A DNA stretch of 64,000 nt from positions 16,337 to 80,336 of the forward strand of contig JAUYIE010000020.1 of NCBI GenBank assembly GCA_030688365.1, in the 5' to 3' direction. Shown here one piece after another: positions 9,348 to 55,702 of this stretch; within the stretch, counting starts at the first letter, position 1, and every line of letters starts with the position of its first letter. The notes under the pieces are model-generated. The model was not told where the DNA came from, searched no databases, and was given only the letters and a program-made list of their open reading frames with translations. The DNA is from a bacterium. GTDB lineage: Bacteria; Patescibacteriota; Patescibacteriia; JACQRZ01. The position numbers and the translations under genes were made by a program.

Positions 9348-9424
9348 GCGCGCATAGCTCAGCCGGTTAGAGCAGAGATCTTATAAGTCTCAGGTCGGTG
9401 GTTCGAGTCCACCTGCGCGCACCA
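9348..9424 (+). tRNA. tRNA-Ile, anticodon UAU
   Basis: Manual cloverleaf. Acceptor GCGCGCA/TGCGCGC. D-stem GCTC/GAGC. Anticodon stem GAGAT/GTCTC with loop CTTATAA. T-stem GGTGG/CCACC. Discriminator A and an encoded CCA. Confidence 0.8.
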
Positions 9425-26407: not shown

Positions 26408-26482
26408 GGCCTCATCGTCTAGTGGTTAGGACGTCAGGTTTTCATCCTGGAAATCGGGGTTCGACTCCCCGTGGGGCTACCA
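26408..26482 (+). tRNA. tRNA-Glu, anticodon UUC
   Basis: Manual fold. Acceptor GGCCTCA/TGGGGCT. D-stem GTCT/GGAC. Anticodon stem TCAGG/CCTGG with loop TTTTCAT. T-stem CGGGG/CCCCG. Encoded CCA. Confidence 0.82.
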
Positions 26483-26559
26483 AGAGTTACAAGATTAATT
26501 TTTTCAAAATCCATCGCGCCATCTGGCGCGTACGCCCCGATGCCTGATTCAAAAACACC

Positions 26560-26598
26560 CCAGTATTTTTCGCTGTGGTGTTTTTTGCATGGTAAACG
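26560..26598. terminator. Bidirectional rho-independent terminator
   Basis: Hairpin ACACCCCAG...CTGTGGTGT with an A-run on one side and a T-run on the other. It lies between tRNA-Glu (plus strand) and the STAS-like gene (minus strand). Confidence 0.45.
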
Positions 26599-26607
26599 AA
26601 GGTTTGT

Positions 26608-26904
26608 TTATTTTTCTTTTATCACAAAAATGTCGCCATGCATTTTTTGTAGTAACTCAAGGGTGTCTCTGACGGAAAGATTCGCAGTAGTATACAAATG
26701 AAGTCTTTTTCCAAACTCCTCCGCAAGGGGAGTCAGAAATTCATCTCCCCACGAAGGAGAAAAGGTAGTTACACCCTCAAAATCAATCTCAATAATCTCG
26801 TTAGATTTTAACTGTGTAAGCAATGAACGCAATGCCAACAGGGCTTCCTTTCCTGCTTGTCGTGACATCAATGAGTGACCAATTTTTTTAAGTTCTAGAC
26901 GCAT
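26608..26904 (-). CDS. STAS-like (DUF4325-like) small protein
   Basis: 98 aa. IEIDFEGVTTFSPSWGDEFLTPLAEEFGKRLHLYTTANLSV resembles the STAS/anti-anti-sigma-like DUF4325 fold. Domain assignment is from memory only. Confidence 0.5.
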   Translation of the reverse strand: MRLELKKIGHSLMSRQAGKEALLALRSLLTQLKSNEIIEIDFEGVTTFSPSWGDEFLTPLAEEFGKRLHLYTTANLSVRDTLELLQKMHGDIFVIKEK

Positions 26905-26908
26905 AGTA

Positions 26909-27661
26909 TTAAAATGTAATTACCGCTAAACATCCTCGTATAGTTTGCTCGGCCTGAATTATCGTGAGATCGTTTTCATTTTGTGCAAGTTGCAGTTCCG
27001 CATCTCCTGACCGGAAAAGGAGAGTAAGAGGATATTTTATGATATTATTGCGTACATACTTTAATCCATTTCCTCTTCGTTCGGGTGCACGACCACTGAT
27101 CGTTTCAGTGAAGGCAAGGCGCAATGCTTCCCCGTCTGTTGCCAGAGTCGGACGTACTCGTTTGAGTGTGGTTAAAATACCTTGTCCACGGTCAGCGAGA
27201 ATAATATAACGCTGTTCAAGGTCAAACGAAAAATAAATACCGGAAATATCAGGCCAGTTCACCAAATTATGATCAAATGAATTATTGCCAATTTCTCCCG
27301 CTGTTGACGTAATAATGGAATACAATTCTTCGAAACCGGACATTTTCATAAGCAGGAGCTCCATTCTTCCAATACGCGCCTGGAAGACTCCGCTATTGGG
27401 ACAGTATACTTCTCCGTGGGGTTCGTATCCTATTGGGCTAGATACCCAAAGCTCAGCATCAAATAATAGCTTCATAGATGTTTTTCTTATAAACGATTCT
27501 ATCGCATAGCGTCTATAATATCTATTCCCTCCTGTTTGCGCTCGTACGGCAAGAAGGGATCCTGATTTGTCCCATCGCCGTAATGTTTGGTGAGAGACCC
27601 CAAGTTTTTTGGCCGTCTCACCGATAGATACTAATTCATTTTTATTATTAAATCTATTCAT
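26909..27661 (-). CDS. MerR-type HTH fused to GHKL-superfamily (RsbW/histidine-kinase-like) ATPase domain
   Basis: N-terminal MerR HTH (IGETAKKLGVSHQTLRRWDKSGSL). ATPase N-box (GEIGNNSFDH), G1 (DRGQGI) and G2 (GNGLKYV) motifs. No HisKA/DHp domain. Confidence 0.6.
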   Translation of the reverse strand: MNRFNNKNELVSIGETAKKLGVSHQTLRRWDKSGSLLAVRAQTGGNRYYRRYAIESFIRKTSMKLLFDAELWVSSPIGYEPHGEVYCPNSGVFQARIGRMELLLMKMSGFEELYSIITSTAGEIGNNSFDHNLVNWPDISGIYFSFDLEQRYIILADRGQGILTTLKRVRPTLATDGEALRLAFTETISGRAPERRGNGLKYVRNNIIKYPLTLLFRSGDAELQLAQNENDLTIIQAEQTIRGCLAVITF

Positions 27662-27859
27662 ATCTATACACTATTATTACATATATATATAGATATGTCA
27701 AGACAAATAAGAAAAAAGTTGATTTTATGTTCTGTACCACATTAATTTCACCAATATTTAGTTCCAATTCGCTCCCTCGAGGGCTATGTCAGAAAGCAAG
27801 GTTTATCGCCTTGTTTTTGGTTATCTCTTGCAGATTTTATATTCGTTATTTAGAATGCT

Positions 27860-28456
27860 ATGTACACTATATGTATTATGAAACTAGTTTATAACATCAA
27901 AGATATTCCGAAAAAATACCGATATATTTTTACAATTGGTAATTTTGATGGTTTCCATACAGGACATCAAAAAATATTAAAAGCGTTGTTGAAAGAAAAA
28001 AAAATACCAAACGACAAAATATTATTAATAACATTTGTTGTGCATACACGCGATATTGATGGATCGTATGACTATCTGACATCCAAAAAAGACACAGAAA
28101 AGTTTTTTGCGTTGTATGGTGTAGACTTCGTATTGAAATTGGATTTTAAAAAAATAAAAGACGTAGAGTATGACGAGTTTTTGAAATGGCTTAATGATAA
28201 TCTTGATCTGAAGGCAATGATTCTGACTGAAAAATTACGTATCGGACATAACCGAAAGGGTACGACAAAAAAAATAATATCAACATTGCAGGCATTAAAA
28301 AATGATATTGCAATTAAGTGTATCCCGTTAGTTGTGATGGATCATAAACCTGTATCTACCACCGCGATCAAAAAATTGATTCAGGGGGGAAATTTTCGTC
28401 AAGCAAATAAACTTTTGGGCTATAAATATCGTGCATCTGACAGACAAGCCGAGTGA
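27860..28456 (+). CDS. FAD synthetase (FMN adenylyltransferase) domain protein, RibF N-terminal-like
   Basis: GNFDGFHTGHQ nucleotidyltransferase motif. Only about 198 aa, with no riboflavin-kinase domain. Confidence 0.6.
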   Translation: MYTICIMKLVYNIKDIPKKYRYIFTIGNFDGFHTGHQKILKALLKEKKIPNDKILLITFVVHTRDIDGSYDYLTSKKDTEKFFALYGVDFVLKLDFKKIKDVEYDEFLKWLNDNLDLKAMILTEKLRIGHNRKGTTKKIISTLQALKNDIAIKCIPLVVMDHKPVSTTAIKKLIQGGNFRQANKLLGYKYRASDRQAE

Positions 28457-55066: not shown

Positions 55067-55702
55067 ATGAAAAGTAAGAAAAATCTCTTGGAACAATTAA
55101 AAACACTTCCGCACTTCAATAAAGATGTGATTTTTCAGCTGGGTACACATCTTGGACTTGAAGATTCCACTATTGATACCTATATCAGCCGATTTTTAAA
55201 AAATAGAGAGATCTATCGGCTCAAAAACGGACTGTATATATCCGCTGATTTTTTTGAAAAGAACAGGAACGATATTTCGTATTCGTTTTATGTGGCCAAT
55301 ATCTTGCGTACGCCATCATATGTCAGTTCGTGGACGGCGTTGCAGTATTTCAATCTCACGACAGAGGCGATACATGGGATTACTTGCGTGACGCCAAAAG
55401 TAACACGAGACTATCAGACACAGGTGGAAAATTTCAGTTATCAGTCTATAGACAAAAAACTGTTTTCCGGATTTTCGTTGGGAACGGGGACATTTGATTT
55501 TTTTATTGCCTCTCCCGCAAAAGCTTTGTTTGACTTGCTGTATTTCAAGACGTATCAGTTTCGCGGTGTGACATTAAAACAGATACCGACATTGATTGAA
55601 GAATTACGCATTGACTTTGATGAGATGGACAAGAAAGAACAGAAAATTTTTTATAAAATGATTAAAAAGAGGATTTTGAAGTGGACGAAAAAGAGAAGGT
55701 AA
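55067..55702 (+). CDS. AbiEi-antitoxin-like wHTH protein (orphan)
   Basis: The N-terminus (LLEQLKTLPHFNKDVIFQLG...IYRLKNGLYI) resembles the AbiEi N-terminal domain (I.R..RG.Y). No co-directional AbiEii partner. Confidence 0.4.
   Translation: MKSKKNLLEQLKTLPHFNKDVIFQLGTHLGLEDSTIDTYISRFLKNREIYRLKNGLYISADFFEKNRNDISYSFYVANILRTPSYVSSWTALQYFNLTTEAIHGITCVTPKVTRDYQTQVENFSYQSIDKKLFSGFSLGTGTFDFFIASPAKALFDLLYFKTYQFRGVTLKQIPTLIEELRIDFDEMDKKEQKIFYKMIKKRILKWTKKRR

Follow-up and report, generated by a model that had tools for sequence, protein, structure and literature searches.

A probable autoregulated kinase–substrate pair of the Patescibacteria: an HTH–GHKL protein and its STAS-like partner

The 64,000-nt window analysed here, a stretch of contig JAUYIE010000020.1 (assembly GCA_030688365.1) from a bacterium of the Patescibacteria (Candidate Phyla Radiation, CPR), carries two co-directional genes on its minus strand. 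The large gene (26909–27661, stop codon included) encodes a 250-aa protein in which a MerR/BldC-type helix-turn-helix (HTH) is fused to a CapK-like GHKL kinase domain, and the small gene (26608–26904) encodes a 98-aa STAS-like partner of the DUF4325 family. We judge it likely, at a probability of roughly 0.6, that the locus is a stand-alone, autoregulated kinase–substrate signalling pair which belongs to the vertically inherited core of the Patescibacteria. The most likely mode of action would be that of an autorepressing, DNA-tethered Ser kinase controlled via phosphorylation of its STAS partner, and in architecture the locus forms a new variant among the CapK/CapS-type kinase–STAS regulators. 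CPR bacteria make up a large share of bacterial diversity and have tiny genomes, and their gene regulation is almost unstudied; here, a two-gene signalling unit conserved over many of their lineages is described together with its predicted operator. No description of this CPR family was found in the literature searched, in which three papers mention DUF4325, and the paper on CapK and CapS and its datasets (PMC13373217) do not cover it.

The assignment of a GHKL (Bergerat-fold) kinase-like domain to aa 111–250 of the large protein (26912–27331, minus strand) rests on its motifs, on Foldseek and on homology to CapK. All of the Bergerat motifs picked out in the first-pass annotation, which had been made from the DNA letters alone, were present in the translation, namely the N-box EIGNNSFDH (E123/N127/D130/H131), the G1 box DRGQGI (DRGQG, D157–G161) and the G2 box GNGLKYV (GNGLK, G197–K201), and there was, as had been stated, no HisKA domain. 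The residues E123, N127, D130, H131, D157, G159, G161, G197 and G199 are invariant in both alignments used, one of close homologs (A1) and one of divergent relatives (A3). The Pfam domain check that had been proposed came out unevenly, since MerR and DUF4325 were confirmed whereas no HATPase_c-type domain was matched in the large protein at E <= 1; relaxing the threshold to E <= 10 in 34 close homologs brought up no Pfam HATPase family either. When the window proteins were scanned with Pfam, NCBIfam and PADLOC, only the HTH and DUF4325 were detected and the GHKL domain was missed, and phmmer and profile hmmsearch against PDB sequences matched the HTH alone, leaving the GHKL and STAS parts unmatched. 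Because Pfam is blind to this domain, the GHKL call needed independent support, which four lines of evidence supply.

The AlphaFold2 (AF2) model of the large protein (predicted local distance difference test, pLDDT, 89.5) found its Foldseek neighbours in the PDB among the ATPase domains of Hsp90/TRAP1, GyrB and topoisomerase II, with E values of 4e-5 to 1e-3. Sub-threshold matches to HATPase_c_2 or HATPase_c were obtained for eight of ten divergent relatives (best 6.2e-6), the highest HATPase_c_2 score being 26.7 bits against a cutoff of 27.4. By BLASTP, aa 111–250 aligned with residues 202–363 of CapK over the full domain length (E 6e-7), and N127 was placed opposite the catalytic N218, mutation of which strongly lowered CapS phosphorylation (PMC13373217); the CapK, CapS and VapS sequences were taken from the source data of that paper. 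Similarly, hhalign aligned the family profile to CapK at E 5.9e-6, whereas the values for SpoIIAB and for a generic HATPase_c_2 protein (0.08–0.11) were not significant; the G1 and G2 boxes nevertheless fell in register with those of SpoIIAB. On these alignments, the predicted kinase domain is specifically related to CapK. CapK itself is an HTH–STAS–GHKL kinase activated by single-stranded DNA (ssDNA; Chambers et al., EMBO J 2026, PMC13373217), and its substrate CapS is a STAS–winged HTH (wHTH) repressor, the dimer of which is broken when CapK phosphorylates Ser54, leading to de-repression of its own promoter and of the downstream immune operon (PMC13373217).

The small protein was identified as a DUF4325 member (PF14213; E 2.4e-7, 30.8 bits against a cutoff of 23), a family which Pfam describes as a STAS-like domain, in line with the earlier call of a STAS-like, DUF4325-like protein of 98 aa. 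Its mean column identity is 64%, and the motif TFSPSWGDEF is invariant. The AF2 model (pLDDT 95.1) has the order beta-beta-alpha-beta-alpha-beta-alpha-beta, with helix 2 running from residue 50, and this order matches that of the SpoIIAA STAS fold minus the last helix. The best PDB matches of the model were RsbS, RsbR and an anti-sigma-factor antagonist (TM 0.62–0.65, at weak Foldseek E values of 0.08–0.2), and together with the model they support a STAS fold. The small-protein profile was aligned by hhalign to CapS without gaps (E 2.7e-4), with S51 opposite S54, and to VapS at E 2.8e-4, VapS itself being a strong DUF4325 member (E 2.7e-17, 62.7 bits); the corresponding comparisons with SpoIIAA and RsbV were not significant. 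Ser51, whose codon lies at 26752–26754 (minus strand) inside the invariant motif, is the candidate phospho-acceptor, and the nearby Ser49 forms an SP dipeptide, as in VapS. The resemblance of the two genes to a kinase and its STAS partner, which had been noted at the outset, was thus upheld, with CapK–CapS and VapK–VapS as the closest characterised relatives. In one related locus (L037, 9040–9297, plus strand), a second ORF of 85 aa follows directly after the pair, and its sequence, IIDFKDTNFIGPSFSDEIF, resembles a DUF4325 paralog, so that one kinase may serve two STAS partners in some genomes.

The N-terminal HTH of the large protein (aa 11–60; 27482–27631, minus strand) was recognised by Pfam, by NCBIfam and through PDB sequence matches. 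Pfam MerR (PF00376) matched aa 12–49 at E 1.4e-9 (38 bits against a cutoff of 28.2), bearing out the MerR-type assignment of the first reading, HTH_17 matched at E 1.3e-7, and NCBIfam HTH_BldC matched weakly (E 1.3e-4). The best PDB sequence matches of the HTH were 6ama and 6amk, which we take to be BldC–DNA complexes. Between the HTH and the kinase domain, the alignments and the AF2 model delimit a helical linker, or N-terminal extension of the kinase domain (aa 61–110; 27332–27481, minus strand), in which W72, C87 and F93 are invariant and R96 near-invariant in the close and divergent alignments alike. The model places linker helices at 64–74 and 90–105 and contains no cis STAS domain.

A family-wide repeat, TG(T/C)ATAG(A/G)TTT, is the predicted target of this HTH, and one to six copies of it lie upstream of the large gene in nearly every locus. 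In 77 upstream regions, 155 same-strand repeats were counted, compared with 2.3 +/- 1.6 in dinucleotide shuffles and with 10 copies on the opposite strand, and the density of repeats reached 10.2 per kb between -200 and +10 as against 0.076 per kb elsewhere in the loci. Start to start, neighbouring copies were 10 nt apart in 21 cases, 19–21 nt in 43 and 30 nt in 6, distances equal to whole helical turns, and the repeats interleave with the -35 and -10 hexamers and with the start codon. In the window, three copies make up the putative operator (27650–27696, minus strand), which is the sole cluster of the motif in the 64 kb. It overlaps a sigma-70-type operon promoter (27673–27701, minus strand) composed of TTGACA (27701–27696), a 17-nt spacer and a TG-extended AATAAT (27678–27673), which with 11 of 12 consensus matches is the best site in the region. 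One repeat, TGAATAGATTT (27660–27650, minus strand), overlaps the start codon; another, TGTATAGATAT (27670–27660, minus strand), lies downstream of the -10 hexamer and just before the start codon (ATG); and an inverted copy (27686–27696, plus strand) sits inside the promoter spacer. Since the repeats cover the -35 hexamer, the spacer, the -10 hexamer and the start codon, binding of the HTH should repress the operon, and the large protein is accordingly predicted, from this arrangement, to be a repressor of its own genes. A precedent for such an array is provided by BldC, which binds direct repeats head-to-tail as cooperative multimers (PMC5859096).

Position 3 of the repeat was found to covary perfectly, in 50 of 50 loci, with the residue that precedes the conserved TLRRW motif. 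C-type repeats were accompanied by Asp in 24 of 24 loci and T-type repeats by Gln, Met or Thr in 26 of 26, and approximately seven concerted switches of repeat and residue were placed on a tree made from the non-HTH part of the protein. We take TLRRW to be the start of the recognition helix. The window protein combines Gln25 (codon 27587–27589, minus strand) with T-type repeats, and the covariation suggests that Q25 is the operator-specificity residue. A single residue is hence predicted to read a single operator base, Asp for C and Gln or Met for T, which is directly testable; to our knowledge, specificity predictions of this kind are rare for uncultivated organisms.

The pair is widespread. 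Database searches returned 5139 homologs of the large protein and 902 of the small protein, and the source names shown among the listed matches were all Patescibacteria lineages or unclassified 'bacterium'. A scan with one genome per species gave matches in at least 556 species-level genomes, the titled records of which span many Patescibacteria lineages, with some records carrying other automatic taxon labels. From these genomes 80 loci were sampled, and the neighbourhood survey that had been suggested in the first-pass annotation showed the pair to be conserved, the kinase gene being followed directly by the STAS gene in 79 of them and the sole exception being truncated by a contig end. No other gene family recurred beside the pair in the 80 loci. 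The gene after the pair was co-directional in 45 and convergent in 31 of 76 loci, and had assorted housekeeping rather than defence-like functions. The window shares no flanking genes even with relatives whose proteins are 76% and 70% identical, which indicates that the pair is a self-contained unit independent of its neighbourhood. The protein tree tracks taxonomy, with all ten Microgenomates in one clade, the Roizman-, Staskawicz-, Falkow- and Uhrbacteria each clustering, and the window protein grouping with the Uhrbacteria, and protein identity is approximately 50% or more across the labelled Patescibacteria lineages sampled. The pair is mostly single-copy in this sample. Two contigs of the same Peribacteria metagenome-assembled genome (MAG; L006 and L007) each hold one copy with 53% identity to the query and C-type operators; the explanation may be a genuine duplication or a bin that mixes strains.

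Signs of mobility were scarce. A single relative was found among the 2.9 million viral contigs of IMG/VR, and it is located (L207, 7367–8098) at the very end of an 8.2-kb contig labelled viral; no relative with a GHKL domain was found among 72,556 plasmids. With PADLOC, only mad1 and MTase HTH segments matched the large protein, and the small protein was without a match. In GC content, the pair does not differ from its flanks. No tRNA gene occurred within 1 kb in 66 of the 80 loci, and where one was present its identity varied. To the first-pass annotation, the genes had looked like a self-contained regulatory or conflict/defence module, isolated beside a tRNA gene, a common hotspot of integration; taken together, the housekeeping context, the tree, the GC content, the tRNA distances, the viral and plasmid searches and the PADLOC results led us to reject both the tRNA hotspot, closeness to a tRNA gene not being a constant feature of the loci, and the defence island. 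Across the Patescibacteria, the pair is best seen as a vertically inherited, non-mobile core feature.

A possible course of events can be put together from these features. The large protein would coat its own promoter via the HTH on the phased repeats, and the operon would be repressed. The STAS partner may dock on the kinase domain, by analogy with CapK–CapS and SpoIIAB–SpoIIAA, and may be phosphorylated there on the invariant Ser51, possibly on Ser49, at the N-terminus of helix 2. Partner binding on the one hand and phospho-release on the other could then change how the kinase oligomerises or whether it sits on DNA, and with it transcription. The input signal could be ssDNA, which activates CapK, or the ATP/ADP ratio, as with SpoIIAB. 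More speculatively, the invariant Trp52 of the partner may correspond to the aromatic residue that stacks on ssDNA in the cis STAS domains of CapK and VapK, a parallel suggested by a weak alignment with the relative P0388 and by our own reading of the CapK and VapK sequences.

In a bolder version, which we regard as doubtful, the CPR would rely on the pair, conserved across the lineage, as their main sensor of stress or cell state, in which the DNA-bound kinase is toggled via the STAS partner by ssDNA or DNA damage or by energy charge and controls a regulon beyond its own promoter; in these minimal genomes it would stand in for SOS-type or sigma-factor partner-switching circuits, and Ser51 and Trp52 would in that case supply the acceptor and a nucleic-acid-stacking residue side by side. 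In approximately 0.95 Mb of related loci, the only motif cluster away from the regulator consists of two TGCATAGATTT copies 19 nt apart (L060, 2897–2925, plus strand), located about 190 nt upstream of a gene for a 374-aa AAA-ATPase, which is a possible second target. A scan of metagenome contigs for the two-copy pattern yielded mostly chance or tandem-repeat matches, and among the genes downstream of them, no family recurred but that of the regulator.

Several observations weigh against the signalling pair as proposed here. Kinase activity, partner phosphorylation and DNA binding are predictions from sequence, and the pair has no linked gene for a cognate phosphatase. Repeat arrays occur almost exclusively at the promoter of the pair, and control of itself alone is an incomplete explanation: the regulon may be very small, further sites may be weaker, or the main output may lie outside transcription. 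Foldseek ranks Hsp90 and GyrB above kinases, which leaves room for a function as an ATPase or a clamp. The small protein aligns only weakly with CapS and VapS (hhalign E ~3e-4, probability ~41%), and in the second of these alignments Ser48 of VapS falls one or two positions off S51, so that the acceptor could be S49. Finally, the N-terminal HTH of CapK was dispensable in a reporter assay (PMC13373217).

Comparison with characterised systems shows what is shared and what is new. As in CapK–CapS, a gene for a GHKL anti-sigma-like Ser kinase is followed directly by a STAS gene, the kinase domains are homologous with the catalytic Asn kept (N127/N218), a conserved Ser stands at the N-terminus of STAS helix 2 (S51/S54; its phosphorylation in the CPR protein is a prediction), and the kinase carries an N-terminal HTH; autoregulation at the own promoter, known for the Cap system, is predicted for the CPR pair. 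In contrast to CapK, in which a cis STAS domain lies between HTH and GHKL and provides the groove for ssDNA, the CPR protein has a linker of about 50 aa with two helices and is 118 aa shorter. CapS is a wHTH-bearing repressor, whereas the CPR partner is without a DNA-binding domain and the HTH, of MerR/BldC type, sits on the kinase. The CPR operator consists of phased direct repeats instead of palindromes, no immune operon lies downstream (in the window, a terminator and a convergent tRNA gene do), and the pair is conserved and vertically inherited without association with defence islands. In this way the CapK/CapS and VapK/VapS family of kinase–STAS systems is extended beyond defence islands to a housekeeping pair. 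With its predicted DNA-binding function moved from substrate to kinase, the pair also has a bearing on the evolutionary rewiring of partner-switching modules.

In the VapK–VapS–VapC system, a PIN toxin has the STAS protein VapS as its antitoxin (PMC13373217). VapS and the CPR small protein share Pfam DUF4325, and the N-box of VapK (EIYANSFEH) closely resembles the EIGNNSFDH of the CPR kinase, which however carries an HTH where VapK has its cis STAS domain. The CPR locus is without a VapC/PIN gene, and the small protein (98 aa, compared with 116 aa for VapS) has no C-terminal inhibitory helix or tail. With regard to the DNA-binding part, the HTH is closest to BldC, and both are without a MerR-type coiled coil; direct-repeat sites of variable number, as bound by BldC, would be a further parallel, arrays of 1–6 copies being the predicted sites in the CPR. 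BldC is, on the other hand, a stand-alone protein of 68 residues (PMC5859096) and not the N-terminal module of a kinase, and its repeat sequence is different. With canonical MerR proteins the large protein shares an N-terminal winged HTH that scores above the Pfam MerR threshold, but it has neither a long dimerisation helix nor a C-terminal effector-binding domain (in the AF2 model, short helices at 51–62 and 64–74 are followed by the GHKL domain), its promoter spacer is 17 nt and not 19–20 nt, and its operator is formed by direct repeats in place of a palindrome in the spacer.

Other explanations of the locus have to be weighed against a kinase–substrate pair. One of them concerns the fold itself: the GHKL domain might be no kinase, and instead a dimerisation clamp driven by ATP, or an ATPase, as in Hsp90, GyrB and MORC, that governs DNA binding by the HTH, with the STAS protein as a non-phosphorylated allosteric cofactor. 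The top Foldseek matches would fit, and the N-box pattern ExxxNxxD is compatible with the GHL type. These matches, however, have low TM values (~0.3) and reflect the shared fold only, the protein has no transducer (second) domain, it is homologous in sequence to the demonstrated kinase CapK, and its partner has an invariant Ser at the position of the CapS phospho-acceptor, all of which makes the clamp unlikely. A classical RsbW/RsbV switch, in which the GHKL protein would sequester an unlinked sigma factor, the STAS protein would act as anti-anti-sigma factor and the HTH would serve autoregulation alone, appears distinctly unlikely. A minimal GHKL domain without HisKA or transducer domain, paired with a single-domain STAS-fold protein that has a Ser at the N-terminus of helix 2, is indeed what SpoIIAB–SpoIIAA and RsbW–RsbV look like, the logic of binding versus phosphorylation-driven release is probably common to all of them, and the weak HATPase_c_2 matches of relatives and the register of G1 and G2 with SpoIIAB point the same way. 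Profile similarity was nevertheless significant for CapK and insignificant for SpoIIAB (0.08) and a generic HATPase_c_2 protein, neither a sigma-factor nor a PP2C phosphatase gene is linked to the pair, and the fusion of the kinase to a DNA-binding domain, together with the operator covariation, suggests that DNA is the direct partner. That no sigma-factor gene is nearby had been seen before, and holds for the window ORFs within approximately 5 kb on either side of the pair; across the 80 loci, none is recurrent. As for an ordinary RsbW in a sigma-B-type operon shared by all relatives, a case which the first-pass annotation had raised, the pair is indeed present in nearly all relatives, but the protein differs from an ordinary RsbW, and a sigma-B operon is absent.

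The idea of a mobile conflict or defence module beside a tRNA gene, sensing infection or DNA damage and controlling an effector in the manner of CapKS or VapKSC, draws on the defence association of the nearest characterised relatives and on the coupling of DUF4325 genes elsewhere to PIN.4 VapC-like genes (PMC5499597), DUF4325 genes being found in a prophage as well. Differing flanks in relatives of 76% and 70% identity and the scattered AbiE-, Fic- and AAA-type genes in some related loci could be read likewise. We nonetheless hold it to be very improbable, as no effector or immune operon accompanies the pair, the downstream genes are diverse housekeeping genes and convergent in 31 of 76 loci, the flanks in the window are housekeeping genes of matching GC, and the inconstant tRNA adjacency, the taxonomy-tracking tree, the protein identity of approximately 50% or more between lineages, the HTH-only PADLOC result and the near absence from viral and plasmid data all speak for a resident gene pair. 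Even slimmer odds are given to an addiction pair of the toxin–antitoxin (TA) type, in which the DUF4325 protein would be the antitoxin of either the GHKL protein or a toxin encoded elsewhere, and the HTH would provide TA-style autorepression. Such systems are two-gene autoregulated operons, as this one is predicted to be, the genomic position is variable, and VapS, a fellow DUF4325 member, is a proven antitoxin; against this stand the lack of any known toxin domain, the very high conservation, the vertical inheritance and mostly single-copy state in the sample, and the absence from the small protein of the inhibitory tail of VapS. A DNA-tethered, autorepressing kinase with a STAS substrate remains our preferred reading of the locus.

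Other architectures occur within the family. Three loci, in MAGs labelled Saganbacteria and Deltaproteobacteria and on a metagenome contig without a label, encode HTH-less kinases of approximately 190 aa with a DUF4325 partner, and a version of the kinase with a MarR-type wHTH occurs in Patescibacteria; the kinase-then-STAS order is kept in both. P0388 has an N-terminal segment with a STAS-like motif before its kinase domain, which aligns weakly with the small partner (E 0.1) and recalls the STAS–GHKL architecture of VapK. On a non-CPR metagenome contig (L083, 5040–6861), an HTH-less kinase/DUF4325 pair comes after an overlapping 139-aa ORF without a Pfam match, and a separate gene for a 151-aa RsbW-like HATPase_c_2 protein and a Fic/HTH pair are located near it. 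P0270, a distant kinase relative of 320 aa, is a fusion of a CTP_transf_like (cytidylyltransferase-like) domain to the GHKL domain, the added domain being of the same broad nucleotidyltransferase type as FAD synthetase. It prompted us to consider a functional link between the pair and the FAD-synthetase gene that neighbours it in the window, which was dropped when this neighbour did not recur in other loci.

In the window, the two genes are separated by a 4-nt gap (26905–26908), as first described. They had also been placed immediately downstream of tRNA-Glu(TTC) (26408–26482, plus strand), which needs correction: both are encoded on the minus strand, so that they converge on the tRNA gene rather than follow it in transcription. 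The stretch that separates operon and tRNA gene contains an intrinsic-terminator-like hairpin at ~26551–26586, with an A-run and a T-run at its flanks, that folds on both strands (-13.9 and -12.4 kcal/mol; z = -2.7 and -2.6) and is consistent with the bidirectional terminator proposed earlier. The neighbours encode a family-2 glycosyltransferase, FAD synthetase, HlyD/MacB, TsaD/TsaE, a type II secretion system (T2SS)-type ATPase and FtsH, all of them housekeeping functions. The FAD-synthetase gene (27860–28456, plus strand) is divergent from the regulator and, together with the intergenic region preceding it, has a GC content of 0.29–0.33 compared with 0.40–0.45 in its surroundings. Further away, a 211-aa ORF (55067–55702, plus strand) has family members in related CPR loci, where their position varies; from its sequence we guess that it encodes a transcriptional regulator or an AbiEi-like antitoxin, and this would point to a variable region elsewhere in the window. 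A tRNA-Ile with the anticodon TAT (UAU) was predicted at 9348–9424 (plus strand); AUA codons are usually read by a lysidine-modified CAU tRNA, and a UAU anticodon is unusual.

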